A DNA stretch of 64,000 nucleotides from an uncultured Clostridia bacterium (GCA_934121905.1 CAKOVI010000009.1:3986-67985); one strand, 5' to 3'; shown: positions 4,630 to 35,107, counted from the first letter of the stretch. Notes: generated by a model not told the origin, from the sequence alone. A program made the numbers and translations.

Positions 4630-6513
4630 TTATTCTTCTAATTGTTTTTTAATTGACCTATATTCTTTTCCACTTCCATCATAAAATCTACTAAATAACT
4701 CATAATACTCAAGTCTTAAAGTTTGAATTCCTACAATTAATCCTTCTAACACTAAAACTACTATATTTCCAAGAACAGCTATTAAGATATTTCCTGCACC
4801 TGTAGTCATATTTGCCAATAAATACACTGCCATACAAAGTCCAGCATGGTTTATTGCAAATGCTGCCAGTCTTAAAAATGAAATTGTATTACTCAAAAAT
4901 GAAAGTAACATTTCTATTATCTCAAATATTTTTTCAACAATTGGCGTACTCGCTTTTTCTTTCTTTTTTTCTAAAAAGTTTGTAATTTGGTCATTAAACA
5001 TAATAATTAAAACCAATATAATCGCAATTATAATTATTATATTAGTTGATACAAGCATTTTTCCGACTAAAAAGTAATAAGCTACACATATTAATACAAA
5101 TGCATATAATAAAATTCCCGCAACACCATTCTTATCTAAAAATATCTTTTTTAAATCTTTGTTTTTTATTCCATTTACAATATTTAAAAACATTGCCATA
5201 AGTATAAATACTGTTCCAACAGCAATTCCGTATACGAGCATTGTATTTATATTATTCATTGGACTTATTAAAACTGGCTTTATTATGTCTTCTTTACCAA
5301 ATACACTTCCATACAATACTCCAAATATTACAGATGATAATCCTCCTGCAAATAAAATTGCCCCATAAGTTTGTTTTTTCTTTATTAGTAAAATGATTCC
5401 TAATATTAAAAACACTAATCCATGTCCTACATCTCCAAACATGAATCCGAACATTATAAATGTAGAAATTGCAACAAACCATGTTGGGTCAAGCTCGTCC
5501 ATTTTAGGCATTCCATACATTTTTACTAGTTCTTCAAATGGTTTTATTATTTTGTTATTTTTAAGCTTGGTTGGTGGATTTTCCCCATCTCTGACAACAT
5601 AATCTATATCTGGCAATCCATCAAGTCTTTTTTTCATTGATTTTAAATTAATCTCTGGAACCCATGCAACAACATAAAAACTTCCATTTTGGTCATGAAC
5701 TATATATTTTTTTATTGTATTAATTTTATCATATGTTTGAAGCTCTCTATAAAGTCTTAGTATTGTCGTCATTGCTTCTTTTTTTAGTTCTTCTTGTTTT
5801 TGTTTAGCAAGTTTTGTATCATTTTCTCTTTGTTTTATTTGTTCTTTTAAGTCTCTTAAATATTCTTTTGGTGTTTTTATTAAATCATCTGGTAATAGCT
5901 CTCTTTCAAATTTTTGAATATTGAATATTCCATCAACTTCACTTACAAATTCTGTTGTCGTAAAATATAATATCCAAGACAAATCACCTTCATCTTTTAC
6001 TTCAAATAAAATAATATTTAAATTGTTTAGTTCTTTTTTTATTTCTTCTAAATTTCTTTTCGGAATACATCCATATCTAAATTTTATATATTGTAAATTA
6101 TAAAGTTTTTGCATATCTATATCAATGTTTTCAATTCTTGATGCATCCTGTATTTTAATTAAAGCATCATCATTTAATTTTTCATTTGTTTCAATTATTT
6201 TTTTACAAGATTCGTAATTCAAATCCATCTCTTCTATTTTTTCAGATATATCTGCAACTTTATTTTCTAGTCTTACCATATCTGTATCTTTTGTATATTG
6301 AATATTTAATTTGTTTAATAGGGTTTCACATCTTTTAAGAGTTTCTTTTATCTTATAATCATATTCAAAATATTCTAGTTTCCAACCTTTGTTATATATC
6401 TTTTTTGCATCTTCTATTTGTACATCACTATTAAATAAAACATTTGCCAAAAATCTATCTAAATCTCTGCTGTTTCCTTTAATTCCTAAAAGCTTCATTT
6501 TTTCTATTGACAT
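4630..6513 (-). CDS. atpI: V-type ATP synthase subunit I (V0 a-type, 627 aa)
   Basis: Large N-terminal hydrophilic domain, then multiple TM helices, and the conserved C-terminal LRLEYYELFSRFYDGSG. Confidence 0.9.
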   Translation of the reverse strand: MSIEKMKLLGIKGNSRDLDRFLANVLFNSDVQIEDAKKIYNKGWKLEYFEYDYKIKETLKRCETLLNKLNIQYTKDTDMVRLENKVADISEKIEEMDLNYESCKKIIETNEKLNDDALIKIQDASRIENIDIDMQKLYNLQYIKFRYGCIPKRNLEEIKKELNNLNIILFEVKDEGDLSWILYFTTTEFVSEVDGIFNIQKFERELLPDDLIKTPKEYLRDLKEQIKQRENDTKLAKQKQEELKKEAMTTILRLYRELQTYDKINTIKKYIVHDQNGSFYVVAWVPEINLKSMKKRLDGLPDIDYVVRDGENPPTKLKNNKIIKPFEELVKMYGMPKMDELDPTWFVAISTFIMFGFMFGDVGHGLVFLILGIILLIKKKQTYGAILFAGGLSSVIFGVLYGSVFGKEDIIKPVLISPMNNINTMLVYGIAVGTVFILMAMFLNIVNGIKNKDLKKIFLDKNGVAGILLYAFVLICVAYYFLVGKMLVSTNIIIIIAIILVLIIMFNDQITNFLEKKKEKASTPIVEKIFEIIEMLLSFLSNTISFLRLAAFAINHAGLCMAVYLLANMTTGAGNILIAVLGNIVVLVLEGLIVGIQTLRLEYYELFSRFYDGSGKEYRSIKKQLEE

Positions 6514-6525
6514 TTGTCTTCCTCC

Positions 6526-7530
6526 TTATTGAACTAATCTTCTTAGGATTTCTTTTTTCTCCATATTGTATCTTATACCTTCTATTGTATTTATTATATC
6601 ATTATTTTCATATTCTACCATGTTAATATAACCCCAAATATAAGCCATTGACATTGTATCATTTCTAAAAATCTTTTTGTTTATATTATAAAGGTATCTG
6701 TCTATATTTTCTTCTAAATCTTCCTCGTCTGTAAATACTGATTTATAAACAGTTTCTTGCATTACTTCTTTTAATTCTTCAAATGAATTTATGCATGTTA
6801 ATTTATTTAAAATTTTGGGATTTAATTTGTAATATCTTTTTATAAGTATGTTTTCTAATTTTTGAACTTCGAAATTATAATATTTTTTTATTCTAAAAAT
6901 CCATAAGACATTTAATAAATCTATTTCTGAACCAATTATTTTCTTTAAATTTGCTTCTTTTTTTATTGTATCATATAGTGTTTCAAAATATAATTTATCC
7001 ATTTCGTTTTCTACTTCAAAAACATTTATGTCCTCTTGTTTTTGATATTTCTTTAGAATTTTATTGTATTTCATCCTTTTTATAGCTTCGAAAAATTCAT
7101 AAAAGTTTTCCACTGTTTCAATTCCTTTTATGTCCTCAAATACATTTTGTGTCCAATTTTTTACATTTTGAACAATTATGTCATTTGTTTTATCATCTGA
7201 AAATAGTTTTCTAAACATACTTTTTACACATTTTATTTCGTATTTTGATAGAAACATTTTAAAAGTCTCTAAATCTTTGTGGTCTAACAATTTTTCTATT
7301 TTTAAAATATTGTTTATTTGGTCTTTTTCTAGCAAACTTTCAATTTCTAATCTATCTATATTTTCATCCGAATTTTTAAATATTTCGCTTTTAGTCTTTA
7401 ACAACAATACTGCATTTTTTAGACTATTTTGCTTTACTAAATCCTCTAAGTCTGTTTTCGTAATCCTTTTAGAATACATGCCTTTCAGCTTTGCATTAAT
7501 ATTAGGGTATTTTACTCCTAAAATTTCCAT
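6526..7530 (-). CDS. atpC: V-type ATP synthase subunit C (V0 d-type, 334 aa)
   Basis: Length and the conserved C-terminal region (SMAYIWGYINMVEYE...IRYN) are typical of bacterial V-type subunit C. Confidence 0.8.
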   Translation of the reverse strand: MEILGVKYPNINAKLKGMYSKRITKTDLEDLVKQNSLKNAVLLLKTKSEIFKNSDENIDRLEIESLLEKDQINNILKIEKLLDHKDLETFKMFLSKYEIKCVKSMFRKLFSDDKTNDIIVQNVKNWTQNVFEDIKGIETVENFYEFFEAIKRMKYNKILKKYQKQEDINVFEVENEMDKLYFETLYDTIKKEANLKKIIGSEIDLLNVLWIFRIKKYYNFEVQKLENILIKRYYKLNPKILNKLTCINSFEELKEVMQETVYKSVFTDEEDLEENIDRYLYNINKKIFRNDTMSMAYIWGYINMVEYENNDIINTIEGIRYNMEKKEILRRLVQ

Positions 7531-31411: not shown

Positions 31412-32758
31412 TTAAAAATGTTTTCCTTTTCTTTTTGTTTTACTACGTTGTAATTCCTCCTCATCTTTTTCTTCATTTTCATCAGTTTCATCATTATTTT
31501 TTATTGCCTTTGGTAATTCTACATCTTCGTTGCTATCGCCTTCATCTTTATTCTCTAATCTCTTCTTTACAATTACAAAAGCAATAATGCAAACAACAAT
31601 AAATGCAACTATTCCAAATATTATATATCTAACTTTTTGCGCCTTTTTTGCGGCATCATTCATTGTTTTGTTTATGTCTGTCATATCTAAATTTGTTTTA
31701 TTAACAATAATTTGATATGTTGAATTTTGTTTTGTTTCTTCATTATAAACTAAAACCGTTATTGTATTCTCTCCTTCAGCCAAATTTTCATTACCAACAA
31801 TGTCAACACTTACACTATGACTTGAGCCTTCTGTTTCTATGTCTAGACTCGAAACATCTCCATTTACATCTACCTTATATTCATATACATTTGGTGAAAA
31901 TGCTGGGTTTAAAGTATAACCTTTTATTGATAAATTTTTCAAATCTGAATTAGTTTCGCTTTGTGCTTCTTGTGTTTTTTCTGATGATGTTTCATTCGTT
32001 GTTGTATTTGAAGTGTTTTCTTCTGCTTGATTTGCTTCTTCTCTTGTAACATTTATTGTGTATGTTTTTTGTGTTCCATCTTCTGCAGTAACAACTACAT
32101 TTAATGTATTTTTTCCAACTTTTAATTTTTGTGATTCATTTCCTTTTATTTTTGCTTTATTGTCTTGGGCTGTTGCATAAACTGTGACTTTTTCTACATC
32201 ATTTGGTACGGTTACATCGTATGATGTTTTTGATGCTTTGAAGCCTTTGAAGTCATTTGGTTTTATTCCGAGGTTACTTAGATTGGCGTTGTTGGATTTA
32301 GTTGTCTCTGTAGTGTTTGTTTTATTGTCTTTATTATTATTCGTTGTATTATTAGTAGTTGTGTTATTATTTGTTGCATTATTACCTTTTTCTTTTACTG
32401 TTATAGTTAAGTTATCTGAAACTTTTTTTGCTGATGTATCTTCACTTCCCGTTACATCTCCTTGTAGACTAACTTTATATGTTCCTACAGCACTTGCTTT
32501 GAATTTTTTCTTTTCTACTTTAGTTGTATTCTCAGCATCAGGTGTATTACCGGCATAATCTGCTGTAACCGCTCCAGATACATGTATATTCCATGCCGCA
32601 CCATTTATTGTTATTGTAACTGTAACTTCATCCCCAACATTTACTGTTGTAGAACTTGCAGATATACTTGCAGAAGCTGCATTTACTTTTCCACTAAATA
32701 TCATTATAAAAAATAGTATTAGCATACAAAATAGAGTTATTTTTTTATTTTTATTCAT
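31412..32758 (-). CDS. Membrane-anchored surface protein: signal peptide, a cohesin-like/Ig-like N-terminal domain, two cadherin-like beta-sandwich domains, and a C-terminal TM helix with a KE-rich cytoplasmic tail
   Basis: 448 aa. N-terminal region ASISASSTTVNVGDEVTVTITING.... Two repeats of the cadherin-like beta-sandwich pattern (LSNLGIKPNDF...YDVTV...TYTINV). TM IIFGIVAFIVVCIIAFVIV and a charged tail. Confidence 0.7.
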   Translation of the reverse strand: MNKNKKITLFCMLILFFIMIFSGKVNAASASISASSTTVNVGDEVTVTITINGAAWNIHVSGAVTADYAGNTPDAENTTKVEKKKFKASAVGTYKVSLQGDVTGSEDTSAKKVSDNLTITVKEKGNNATNNNTTTNNTTNNNKDNKTNTTETTKSNNANLSNLGIKPNDFKGFKASKTSYDVTVPNDVEKVTVYATAQDNKAKIKGNESQKLKVGKNTLNVVVTAEDGTQKTYTINVTREEANQAEENTSNTTTNETSSEKTQEAQSETNSDLKNLSIKGYTLNPAFSPNVYEYKVDVNGDVSSLDIETEGSSHSVSVDIVGNENLAEGENTITVLVYNEETKQNSTYQIIVNKTNLDMTDINKTMNDAAKKAQKVRYIIFGIVAFIVVCIIAFVIVKKRLENKDEGDSNEDVELPKAIKNNDETDENEEKDEEELQRSKTKRKGKHF

Positions 32759-32773
32759 ATGTTTCTCCTTTTA

Positions 32774-34324
32774 TTACAAATTTATTTTTCCTAATAGAAA
32801 TCTCTTAATGTTTAATAAATCTGCTGAGTCTATGGAGCCATCATTGTTTGTATCAGCATTATTTTTTTGTTGTTCTGTCAATGTGATTTTATTTAGTAAA
32901 TATTTTTGCAAATGTAATAAATCCGCTGAATCACGATTTCCATCTCCATTTACATCACCCTTTTTTACTTCTGTACCGTCATTTTGATTATTATTTCCAC
33001 TATCACCAGAACCACCACTATTTCCACTTCCACCAACAGAAATTAAATACTCCTTATAATTACTCTCATAATCATAAGTTGTTCTAGCAACATATCCAAC
33101 AGTACCATCATTTTTCAAAATCTTATCCCAATAAGTATTACCAACCTTTGAAGTAGCAGATTGTAATCTAGTAGCTATCTCACCAAAATATAAAGCACCT
33201 TTTGTAGAATTGCCCTTTGGTTCATTTCTCATTCTTATACTTGGATTAGCATTCACCTTAACTAAATCCACATCAACCTGCTTTGGAGCACTTGTTGTTG
33301 AAGGTCTTGAAGATGTATTTGTTGGCATATTTTCATAAACAGGAATTATAAAAGTATAACCAAAATCAATAGCACCTATATTATTCAAGGTTTTCCTTAA
33401 AGTTGTTCCTTCACTTTGAGCTGCTAAAATATTTTGCATATATTGATGCCAATACATTTTCCCATCTGAATTGTCTACATCAAATTTTTGTAAATACATT
33501 GTATTTTGACCAACTGAAATATATTTACTTGAAATTATCTGGATACCGCCATCCAAAGCCTTTTCCATGCTAGTCCAACCATAACTTTCAGCCTTTGCCA
33601 AACCATTTAGTATTACTTTTTCCTTATTGCCTCCAGATGCTCCTATGTTAAAAACATTATATATTCCAACATATTGACCATTATAACCTTGTCCGTTTGC
33701 TAAAACCGTTCCACTCTTTCCTTGTTCTTGTAAAATTCTTGCTGCTATATAATATGGATTTACATTATATTTCTTACTTGAATCCATTATTGCTGTTATA
33801 TATGTATCATTATCTAAAAAACTACCTTCTAGCATTTTCTTTAATGTATCTTTAGAATATCCATTTGAATCATATGATAATTCTAAAAATTGGAATATAT
33901 CTGATGAATTTAACGAAGCTCTTGGGTCCATCATGTACTTTAAAGCTGACGTTGATGCACATTTCCAACTTCCTGAATCATATACTGTATCTAAACAATA
34001 TCCACAAACCCATTCTCCTCCATATGATGTTGTATCTGGTACTAAATTCTTTGGAGATTGTCCATGCCCTGTGTATTCATAAGTTATTGCTTCATTCCAG
34101 TCAATTCCAGTATATAATATTTTAAAATTCCAATTTGGATGTTCTTTTTTTAAATTTTCTATTTTTTCTTTTATTTCTGGATATTTTGAAGTATTTATTG
34201 AATTAATATCACTGCTTGTTGTTTGATTTGTTGCATTTGTTTTATAACCAAATATGCCAAGTATAGTCATTAATATGATATTTATTATGATTAAAATTGC
34301 TATTATTTTTATATTTTTTTTCAT
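32774..34324 (-). CDS. Secreted peptidoglycan hydrolase: GH73 N-acetylglucosaminidase domain, SH3b domain and a C-terminal dockerin type I repeat pair
   Basis: 516 aa. GH73 core YYIAARILQEQGKSG...YNVFNIGASGG. SH3b region SIRMRNEPKG...GYVAR. Dockerin repeats DVNGDGNRDSADLLHLQKYLL and DTNNDGSIDSADLLNIKRFLL. Confidence 0.8.
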   Translation of the reverse strand: MKKNIKIIAILIIINIILMTILGIFGYKTNATNQTTSSDINSINTSKYPEIKEKIENLKKEHPNWNFKILYTGIDWNEAITYEYTGHGQSPKNLVPDTTSYGGEWVCGYCLDTVYDSGSWKCASTSALKYMMDPRASLNSSDIFQFLELSYDSNGYSKDTLKKMLEGSFLDNDTYITAIMDSSKKYNVNPYYIAARILQEQGKSGTVLANGQGYNGQYVGIYNVFNIGASGGNKEKVILNGLAKAESYGWTSMEKALDGGIQIISSKYISVGQNTMYLQKFDVDNSDGKMYWHQYMQNILAAQSEGTTLRKTLNNIGAIDFGYTFIIPVYENMPTNTSSRPSTTSAPKQVDVDLVKVNANPSIRMRNEPKGNSTKGALYFGEIATRLQSATSKVGNTYWDKILKNDGTVGYVARTTYDYESNYKEYLISVGGSGNSGGSGDSGNNNQNDGTEVKKGDVNGDGNRDSADLLHLQKYLLNKITLTEQQKNNADTNNDGSIDSADLLNIKRFLLGKINL

Positions 34325-34395: not shown

Positions 34396-34425
34396 AGTAT
34401 ATCATTTTTGGGTTTTATAAGTCAA
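34396..34425 (-). promoter_or_regulatory. Sigma-A-like promoter (TTGACT-18nt-TATACT) for the hydrolase/surface-protein bicistron
   Basis: Hexamers read on the minus strand, about 70 nt upstream of the 34324 start. Confidence 0.45.
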
Positions 34426-34501: not shown

Positions 34502-34535
34502 AATAAACAATTCCAACAAGAAAAAGCCCGTTTTT

Positions 34536-34805
34536 TTACCAAACGAGCTTCACCAAAATATTTTCCAAATCAAATTTCACTTTATTATCCTCTTTTTCAT
34601 ATCCGCAAACCATTGCAGTATTAATCCTAAAATTACAATTAGTTCCATTTATTTCTATAAATCCAATGTCCTTTTTATAATTCACATTAGCATCATTCAA
34701 TTCAATCTTTCCCTCTATGGCCCTTTCAAATTCAAGTTTGATTTTAGTATTATTTTCATATTCTTTTAAAACTTTAGTTAATTCATTTTCATTAAATTTT
34801 GTCAT
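34536..34805 (-). CDS. Small hypothetical protein (89 aa) bracketed by repeat copies 12 and 13
   Basis: ORF with a long upstream leader. No recognisable motif. Confidence 0.45.
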   Translation of the reverse strand: MTKFNENELTKVLKEYENNTKIKLEFERAIEGKIELNDANVNYKKDIGFIEINGTNCNFRINTAMVCGYEKEDNKVKFDLENILVKLVW

Positions 34806-35015
34806 AGTAATTCCTCTCTTTCTATTCCTATTATTTACTATTTGAAAATTTTATATTCATGATAACTTAATAAGCTCCTAACTTCTTATCTTGAATAAGT
34901 GTTAATCCATCACCTCGAATCGCGAATTTTTGAGTTTAGATTTTGAAAAAATTTTTTGAATTAATTTATAACATATTACCATATTTTGATTATAAAATCT
35001 AGCGAACAAAAAAAA

Positions 35016-35107
35016 TTCTGATTGGGGACAATTCTTTTCAGAAAATGTTCCAAAAAGACCCGGTTCCAATGGAACATTTTGCCAAAAGAACCGTCCCCAA
35101 TCAGAAA
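35016..35107. repeat. MITE-like palindromic repeat, copy 13 (TTCTGATTGGGGAC...GTCCCCAATCAGAAA termini; internal CCAAAAAGACCCGGTTCCAATGG)
   Basis: Abuts the stop codon of the ABC permease gene. Confidence 0.85.

Follow-up and report, generated by a model that had tools for sequence, protein, structure and literature searches.

The 64,000-nucleotide stretch analyzed here (the window; CAKOVI010000009.1:3986-67985 of assembly GCA_934121905.1, from an uncultured Clostridia bacterium) carries on its minus strand two adjacent genes, one encoding a peptidoglycan hydrolase that ends in a type I dockerin and the other a membrane-anchored surface protein, which probably act as an enzyme and its dedicated anchor. 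The hydrolase gene (32774..34324) encodes 516 amino acids and the anchor gene (31412..32758) encodes 448; both are in the same reading frame, and all features of the pair described below lie on the minus strand. The 15-nt intergenic spacer (32759..32773) contains an AAGGAG ribosome-binding site, and a scan found no terminator-like site between the two genes. A consensus scan identified a promoter-like site (TTGACT-18-TATACT with a TG extension; 34396..34425) about 70 nt 5′ of the hydrolase start codon, and a terminator-like hairpin (34523-34551) closes an upstream open reading frame (ORF) that encodes 89 amino acids. The promoter-like site is itself weak evidence, since shuffled sequences yield as many such matches as this region does. 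Co-transcription of the pair, as proposed in the original prediction made from this DNA, is nonetheless plausible because of the short gap and its ribosome-binding site, the lack of a terminator between the genes, and the presence of both a promoter-like site and a terminator-like hairpin upstream.

The hydrolase is composed of a hydrophobic N-terminus, a Cys-containing region, a GH73 domain, an SH3b-like domain, a linker rich in Gly, Ser and Asn, and the type I dockerin. Residues 1-31 (34232..34324) have a basic start and a hydrophobic stretch that ends ‘TNA|T’ and read either as a signal peptide or as a signal anchor that stays uncleaved; across 37 orthologues Q34 never varies and A31 hardly does. 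The GH73 N-acetylglucosaminidase-type domain (residues 117-330; 33335..33976) is homologous to solved GH73 enzymes, with phmmer E-values against PDB sequences from 2e-15 to 7e-9 for matches that include SagB (6u0o, E=2.4e-15; 6fxp), Atl (6fxo), Acp (5wqw) and AtlE (4pi7). The putative catalytic Glu, E200, aligns with the Glu of the SagB motif LLETG and is invariant in the 37 orthologues, as are Q201 and H293-Q294-Y295. The Pfam Glucosaminidase profile PF01832 does not match the window enzyme and matches 10 of the 37 orthologues, and the NCBIfam SagB equivalog model NF052642 scores 72 bits against a cut-off of 425, which marks the enzyme as a homolog and not an equivalog. The SH3b-like domain (residues ~352-425, boundaries approximate; 33050..33271) is probably a peptidoglycan-binding module. 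It was located through orthologues, 17 of the 37 aligned sequences matching SH3_3 (PF08239, best E=1.6e-7), whereas the window protein gives no match at E≤1; its pattern ‘VKVN..SIRMRNEP...GYVAR’ fits an SH3b domain. The GH73 identity is thus secure, because it combines homology to solved enzymes with the invariant E200, and the SH3b identity is likely but indirect, because it comes by way of orthologue matches.

Several further features of the enzyme can be described. Between the N-terminal segment and the GH73 domain lies a conserved region (residues 39-116; window 33977-34210) that matches no family; invariant positions here are H87, C107, C110 and C122 (‘…GGEWVCGYCLDTVYDSGSWKCAS’), which could form a metal site or disulfides. 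The GH73 domain also matches the phage family phrog_759 (E=5e-20). We rejected a prophage or endolysin origin on account of the housekeeping neighbors of the gene and the retention of the locus across species. In several species a second, shorter hydrolase paralogue of ~360 amino acids is found ~1.6 kb 3′ of the anchor gene (L050 7174-8268; L057 7418-8491; L066 5933-7018; similarly in L075, L076, L077 and L080). It has 42-46% identity over 300-344 amino acids and is too short to hold all domains of the 516-residue enzyme.

The C-terminal dockerin (residues 455-511; 32792..32962) matches the whole of Pfam profile PF00404 (positions 1-57 of 57; 52.6 bits against a cut-off of 22.9, E=5.3e-14), and the same profile matches in 37 of 37 orthologues. 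Solved type I dockerins, 2ccl_B and 1ohz_B among others, also match this region. The domain consists of two 22-residue repeats, DVNGDGNRDSADLLHLQKYLLN and DTNNDGSIDSADLLNIKRFLLG, in each of which an EF-hand-like Ca2+-binding loop with ligands D1, N/D3, D5 and D12 is followed by a helix (DVNGDGNRDSAD... and DTNNDGSIDSAD...). Across an alignment of 74 dockerins, both repeats always keep the Ca2+ ligand at position 12; the ligand at position 5 never changes in repeat 1 and only rarely in repeat 2.

The anchor protein comprises a signal peptide, an immunoglobulin (Ig)-like module at its N-terminal tip, a linker, a first cadherin-like domain, a second linker and cadherin-like domain, a transmembrane (TM) helix and a charged tail. 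Pfam PF12733 matches two stretches of the protein (71.9 bits against a cut-off of 24.2) corresponding to cadherin-like beta-sandwich domain 1 (residues ~159-241; 32036..32284; best stretch residues 160-240) and domain 2 (residues ~271-355, approximate; 31694..31948), the latter placed by the repeat ‘SDLKNLSIKGYTLNPAFSP...’. These domains may serve as spacers in a stalk. The TM helix (residues 376-397; 31568-31633), read directly from the sequence, is followed by a cytoplasmic tail rich in Lys, Glu and Asp (residues 398-448), the two together spanning 31415..31633 and ending in RKGKHF. Across anchors the cadherin-like domains number from 0 to 3 or are replaced by an SH3b-like domain, and in one locus (L061) the downstream gene (5816-6643) encodes a signal peptide, an Ig-like module, a linker and a TM helix only, with no cadherin-like domain. 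The persistent parts of the anchor are therefore the signal peptide, the tip, a spacer and the TM helix. On most of these points the original prediction is confirmed. Its coordinates for the two minus-strand ORFs are exact, the peptides it quoted are present, and its type I dockerin, GH73 hydrolase and two cadherin-like repeats are borne out by the matches described above, as are the anchor signal peptide, C-terminal hydrophobic helix and charged tail by inspection; its SH3b assignment stands by way of the orthologues. Among the families that it had named for a profile scan, Dockerin_1 and Cadherin-like matched the window proteins, and Cohesin, Glucosaminidase and SH3_3 did not.

Anchor bodies show additional variation. 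Those of L035, L037, L052, L062, L068 and L074 are modular; in some species an SH3b-like segment (‘…NETVYA…VNVRES…’) stands in place of the first cadherin-like domain, and the P0086 anchor has three cadherin-like domains. A basic C-terminal motif of the tail (31415-31567) is kept in distant homologs, with the forms RKGKHF, KRGKHF, YKGRRFK and HKGKRFK among the C-termini compared (window, P0032, P0076, P0086 and P0120), which suggests a conserved cytoplasmic or membrane-surface contact in a protein that otherwise works outside the cell. Protein P0077 (363 amino acids, 54 member sequences) looks like a deletion hybrid in which a hydrolase-like signal N-terminus is joined directly to a linker and the cadherin-like body, with no catalytic domain, dockerin or tip.

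The tip module (residues 28-124; 32387..32677) is the proposed dockerin receptor, and the original prediction had taken it for a cohesin-like domain. An AlphaFold2 (AF2) model built from a 26-sequence alignment has a predicted local distance difference test score (pLDDT) of 95.6 and shows 8 strands in 100 residues. Its best Foldseek matches in the PDB are CARDB domains (3idu, 2kl6), SoxZ, PKD and the Ig domain of LAIR-1, with query-normalized TM-scores (TMq) of 0.55-0.68, while the first cohesin (1g1k) appears at rank 28 with a TMq of 0.44. Pfam Cohesin (PF00963) gives no match at E≤1 to the module in the full protein or alone, a search of PDB sequences with the 26-sequence profile returns no match and hence no cohesin, and hhalign assigns a probability of 0.2% to the alignment of the window-type tip with the cohesin-allele cluster described below. 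As a control we modeled the module that a conspecific allele carries in this position (P0026; pLDDT 90.4). Cohesins (TMq 0.57-0.72) account for eight of its ten best Foldseek matches and for most of those ranked lower; among them are 4ums, 2vn6_A, 6kgf_C, 5nrm_A, 3ul4_A, 1aoh and cohesins of Clostridium perfringens; these solved cohesins are 135-156 residues long, compared with 100 for the window tip. Since the same pipeline finds cohesins in the control, we conclude that the window tip module is not one: as modeled, it is an Ig-like beta sandwich and not a recognizable cohesin. For the window allele the cohesin assignment of the original prediction thus fails at the level of Pfam, profile and fold, and a cohesin-type fold, the absence of which that prediction itself had named as evidence against it, is missing from the AF2 and Foldseek results.

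An exhaustive profile search recovers the window-type tip in 583 representative clusters, and in the best 150 of these 583 matches it always follows the signal peptide directly, at residues ~26-125, and is never in tandem (150/150). Profile-profile comparison places most tip types, the window type included, in one Ig-like superfamily, within which probabilities may be somewhat inflated as a few flanking residues were included in the profiles. Clusters 4, 5 and 15 form a second, cohesin-like-looking group, in which L027 gives a sub-threshold match to Pfam Cohesin (E=0.007), and cluster 12, the Pfam-cohesin type, forms a third.

Comparison across species reveals that the pair is maintained as a unit and that its two ends change together. 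One genome per species was scanned, relatives of the hydrolase were found in 519 genomes, and 80 loci were kept for comparison. Each of the two proteins has more than 1,000 homologs, nearly all from metagenomes or metagenome-assembled genomes (MAGs), and nearly all of the 80 records are MAGs of uncultured Clostridia from human, rabbit, goat, mouse and chicken guts (examples include Clostridium sp. CAG:575, CAG:389 and 28_12). An anchor homolog lies directly downstream on the same strand in 77 of 80 loci, or 78 with the minimal form in L061, and the remaining two stop at a contig edge. One apparent fusion of the hydrolase with the anchor body (L006) was rejected as an artifact of a run of N, which appears as X in the translation. 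The tip module occurs as a cassette, with many mutually unalignable types carried on very similar anchor bodies. We distinguish ~18 tip types, each with its own dockerin signature: the window type (…INGAAWNI…) is accompanied by D-S-A-D-L-L…Q/K-K-x-L-L, the ‘SFSSS…GNG’ type by T-A/S-S-D-Y-V-L-I-K-N-x-I-M, the ‘PNVNTS’ type by D-S-M-D-M-Y…I-Q-x-I-L, the Pfam-cohesin type by T-T-R-D-A-Q-Y-I-Q-E, and the ‘…LELVSASGG’ type by D-A-R-D-S-L-R-I-L-K-Y-A-V.

This correspondence was quantified using fixed-window local-alignment similarities for four segments of the two proteins in pairs from 74 species. Dockerin similarity follows tip similarity closely (r=0.78; partial r=0.76 when the catalytic domain is controlled for), and neither is tied to the catalytic domain or the anchor body (dockerin and catalytic domain, r=0.24; dockerin and anchor body, r=0.15; tip and anchor body, r=0.17), which correlate with each other at r=0.73. 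In a Mantel test of dockerin against tip, none of 5000 permutations reached the observed r, the maximum being 0.10. No discordant pairs were found: dissimilar dockerins occur in 0 of 113 pairs with similar tips, and unrelated tips in 0 of 92 pairs with similar dockerins. Pairing of the dockerin with the cadherin-like domains, which the original prediction had offered as an alternative, was rejected, given that the anchor body does not co-vary with the dockerin and that the L061 anchor has no such domains.

Within the species the joint replacement can be mapped at the level of DNA. Two conspecific loci, L084 and L085, are 98-100% identical to the window from ~36590 to ~32945 and again from ~32300 to ~31480. 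Between these limits, in a segment of ~640 bp (32300..32945, boundaries ±15 nt), identity falls to ~50-60%, near the level of unrelated A+T-rich sequence. This specificity cassette begins inside the Ca2+-binding loop of the first dockerin repeat (‘…KKGDVNGDG|’), just before the recognition helix, and ends just before the first cadherin-like domain (‘…SNNANLSNLGIKPNDF’); it takes in the remainder of the dockerin with its stop codon, then the ribosome-binding site in the spacer and, from the anchor, the signal peptide, the tip and most of the linker rich in Asn and Thr. At the protein level, residues 1-430 of the hydrolase are 97-98% identical between these loci and the window and the anchor body 94-95%, compared with 34-44% for the dockerin and 25-46% for the tip module. 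The window allele combines a DSADLL dockerin with an Ig-like tip of type A, the L084 allele a TASDYV dockerin with an Ig-like tip of type B, and the L085 allele a TTRDAQ dockerin with a Pfam cohesin. Among anchors with bodies 90-99% identical to that of the window there are three tip types, represented by 11, 8 and 4 clusters at 90% identity. The cohesin-allele tips cover the whole of PF00963 with scores of 29 bits (P0099) and 32 bits (L003) against a cut-off of 24.1. Where the window has its Ig-like module, one allele thus has a true cohesin, a known dockerin receptor. A second species provides another example of this swap: its anchors P0078 and P0099 share 99% identity in the body and 25% in the tip. 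When different species are compared, cassettes of one type are 70-85% alike whereas the bodies are 60-68% alike; the cassettes have therefore either been exchanged between species or been maintained as an old polymorphism.

The dockerin residues that distinguish the alleles are not scattered. Positions 9-11, 13, 14, 17, 18, 20 and 21 of each repeat are fixed within a type and differ between types; they make up one face of the helix and include positions 10, 11, 17 and 18, which are used in the field as recognition positions (PMC4081043). At these type-specific positions the residues of repeats 1 and 2 agree in 154 of 162 cluster comparisons (94% per sequence), compared with 84 of 162 at the other positions (47% per sequence). 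Divergence focused on a symmetric, mirrored recognition face argues for selection on a binding surface that differs between alleles. Adjacency of the dockerin and tip in the DNA means that simple linkage could explain their joint inheritance, but not the divergence of the symmetric face.

Considering these observations together, we think it probable that the locus encodes a dedicated, allele-specific dockerin-receptor tether for an autolysin, here with a non-cohesin socket, the binding itself being what we infer. The bicistronic unit would supply a matched enzyme and anchor. Its first product would be a secreted peptidoglycan glycosidase of family GH73 that binds the wall through an SH3b-like domain and ends in a type I dockerin, and its second a type I membrane protein acting as a stalk, built of two cadherin-like spacers and low-complexity linkers and bearing the Ig-like module at its outer tip. 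The dockerin would bind the tip module, presumably in a Ca2+-dependent manner and in either of two symmetric orientations, thereby holding the autolysin on the surface of the cell that produces it, with the stalk setting its distance from the membrane, where it could trim or separate the wall. Both sides of the interface, the dockerin helices and the tip module, would be encoded by the one ~640-bp segment across the gene boundary, which would come in several alleles unrelated to one another, each exchanged whole both within a species and from one species to another. Depending on the allele the receptor would be a non-cohesin Ig-like module, as in the window, or another Ig-like module or a genuine cohesin, as in conspecific strains; that some alleles have a genuine cohesin here suggests that the Ig-like modules do the same job. 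On why the pair has diversified we can only speculate: docking may be kept private among co-resident relatives, or the tip may escape phage or antibodies with the dockerin following. The tether envisaged in the original prediction thus receives strong support from adjacency, co-variation and joint allelic replacement, and loses both the cohesin identity of the window module and the pairing with cadherin-like domains.

Several considerations weigh against this interpretation. In the DNA the dockerin and tip segments lie side by side between conserved flanks, and homologous recombination would therefore swap them together even without any functional coupling. The window tip is not a cohesin, and to our knowledge no non-cohesin dockerin receptor of this kind has been established; a cohesin-bearing partner may be encoded elsewhere in the genome, beyond the 64 kb in view. 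The natural substrate could be the cell's own wall or that of a competitor, and the N-terminal segment of the hydrolase could be a cleaved signal peptide or an uncleaved anchor. The main rival explanation builds on the first of these points. The tip would diversify as the most exposed surface epitope, recognized by phage, antibodies or a neighbor's toxin, and the adjacent dockerin, dragged along, would bind a cohesin encoded elsewhere, a wall component, or nothing. The contiguity of the modules makes this reasonable, as does the presence of obvious crossover sites in the conserved catalytic/SH3b and cadherin-like flanks, and the intergenic spacer and signal peptide between the modules are indeed swapped too. 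That the window tip is not a cohesin also counts in its favor. Hitch-hiking alone, however, does not account for dockerin differences that lie on the recognition face and are mirrored in both repeats, nor for the genuine cohesin that adjoins the dockerin in some alleles. The upstream breakpoint falls inside the dockerin and not at a domain boundary, mismatched combinations of dockerin and tip are absent among the 74 species, and the 64-kb window holds one dockerin, one tip module and no other candidate receptor. This rival is weakened above all by the pattern on the dockerin face and by the cohesin alleles, and we regard it as unlikely.

The literal alternative, that the window tip is a divergent cohesin and the locus an ordinary non-cellulosomal type I cohesin-dockerin pair, we judge very improbable. 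A beta sandwich does occupy the position at which other alleles carry a cohesin, 1g1k is among the weaker Foldseek matches, and the cluster 5 tips give a sub-threshold match to the Cohesin profile, but the sequence, profile and profile-profile comparisons of the window module all fail to connect it to cohesins, it has 100 residues and 8 strands whereas the solved cohesins matched by the control have 135-156 residues, and its structural neighbors are CARDB, SoxZ, PKD and Ig domains under conditions in which the control allele returns cohesins. A further possibility concerns biological role only and is compatible with docking: the tether is real, and the displayed enzyme lyses neighboring bacteria rather than acting on the cell's own wall. 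Dockerin-bearing lysozymes are present in rumen metagenomes (PMC6487960), the idea of a ‘lyticome’ has been floated in a review (PMC6403190), and dockerin-bearing lysozymes and other wall hydrolases of rumen bacteria have been proposed to function in competition (PMC6487960; PMC6403190). The resemblance of the GH73 domain to phage tail-associated wall hydrolases (phrog_759) and the allelic diversification, which is typical of conflict systems, would fit such a role. The housekeeping neighborhood, the occurrence of the same locus in hundreds of species and the lack of an evident immunity-like gene adjoining the pair do not. Moreover, cell separation is the typical function of GH73 autolysins that carry wall-targeting modules (AcmA, AtlA, LytB, SagB). 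Wall trimming or cell separation is the likely role of the hydrolase, and offensive display seems to us quite unlikely.

The proposed tether shares features with several known systems and differs from each. Cellulosomal type I pairs (C. thermocellum 1ohz; C. cellulolyticum 2vn5/2vn6) use the same dockerin family with two symmetric 22-residue repeats; the locus shares their variation at the classical recognition positions, its repeat symmetry fits a dual binding mode, and a true cohesin partner is present in some of its alleles. Cellulosomes, however, combine a multi-cohesin scaffoldin with plant-cell-wall enzymes and are anchored by S-layer homology (SLH) domains or sortase, whereas here a single enzyme, a peptidoglycan hydrolase, would be matched with a single receptor on a C-terminal TM helix, and in the window and most species the receptor module is not a recognizable cohesin. 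Within the 64-kb window we find nothing of a cellulosome or scaffoldin, the content being one dockerin, one receptor module and a GH73 cargo. The glycoside hydrolase and toxin pairs of C. perfringens join soluble enzymes to one another. They likewise employ cohesin-dockerin modules outside cellulosomes (cohesins 2jh2, 2vo8 and 2w1n), assembling secreted glycosidases, and the Foldseek search with the cohesin allele returned these cohesins too; they are not known to tether an autolysin to a membrane stalk or to form an adjacent two-gene polymorphic cassette. The closest published precedent is a lone dockerin/cohesin pair linked to GH73 in a non-cellulolytic gut Firmicute. As far as the accessible part of that report extends, its receptor is a recognized cohesin, unlike that of the window allele, and it describes no allelic cassettes, non-cohesin receptors or breadth across hundreds of species.

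Characterized GH73 autolysins (SagB and Atl of Staphylococcus aureus, AtlE, Acp of C. perfringens, and also AcmA, AtlA and LytB) have a homologous catalytic domain with the conserved Glu, to which the window enzyme adds an accessory SH3b-like domain. They are targeted by LysM, choline-binding modules or GW repeats, or by an N-terminal TM anchor together with SpdC, in place of which we propose a dockerin tether to a stalk. In its genetic architecture, and in this respect only, the locus resembles the staphylococcal agr groups, in which a hypervariable segment across gene boundaries encodes interacting parts and occurs as discrete alleles between conserved flanks. The biology of agr is different, the parts being a quorum-sensing peptide, its processing enzyme and its receptor. 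In full-text searches that covered few subscription journals, we found no description of a conserved two-gene unit of a dockerin-GH73 enzyme and a TM stalk in hundreds of gut Clostridia, of non-cohesin Ig-like modules as presumptive dockerin receptors, or of intraspecific alleles that swap a dockerin and its receptor together.

A broader proposal, on which we consider the evidence evenly balanced, is that the Ig-like tips constitute a new and large family of dockerin receptors interchangeable with cohesins, and that the locus is a balanced trans-species lock-and-key polymorphism by which the docking site of an autolysin stays private among co-resident relatives. The family would be sizable, with 583 representative clusters for the window type alone and ~14 related types. 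Dockerins are widespread outside cellulosomes, and many genomes that encode them have few or no recognizable cohesins; Ruminococcus albus is one such case, with 58-90 dockerin proteins and 0-1 cohesin (PMC4081043). If correct, the proposal would offer a concrete candidate answer to why this is so. The alternation of a genuine cohesin with two unrelated Ig-like modules at one position between conspecific strains is in effect a natural experiment, and it makes the hypothesis of Ig-like dockerin receptors directly testable. For very common uncultured gut Clostridia (519 species-level genomes) the locus suggests how a cell-wall hydrolase may be positioned, and its small plug-socket pairs, which seem to be orthogonal to one another, would be a further set of parts that might serve in protein assembly.

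The surroundings of the pair are of a housekeeping character, with genes for cofactor-independent phosphoglycerate mutase (iPGM), enolase, an ABC transporter, an acyl-CoA ligase, BirA and fab functions; an Rfam scan of the 64-kb window found one tRNA only. The 89-aa ORF upstream of the hydrolase (34536-34805, minus strand) has no Pfam match and is kept directly 5′ of it in the conspecific loci L081, L082, L084 and L085, and the hairpin that follows it is the only convincing terminator-like hairpin of the region. Between this ORF and the gene for an ABC-transporter permease, an indel of ~41 bp (window ~34987-35086) distinguishes the window from L084 and L085 in DNA that is otherwise 98-100% identical. 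Conspecific synteny breaks directly 3′ of the anchor gene (window ~31480 downward): in the window a gene for a multi-TM protein of 185 amino acids and a YbjQ-like gene follow, whereas L084 (5451-7221) has an Abi_2 gene and L085 (5452-9386) helix-turn-helix (HTH), PrgI, TraC-like and VirB4/TraG-like conjugation genes. The region 3′ of the pair thus resembles a hotspot for insertions. Nearly all long ORFs of the window are on the minus strand, its G+C content is ~29%, and GC skew is negative across 1-64000 except briefly near 52-54 kb, where there are three plus-strand ORFs; the strand bias and skew are consistent with one replichore of a low-G+C Firmicute chromosome.

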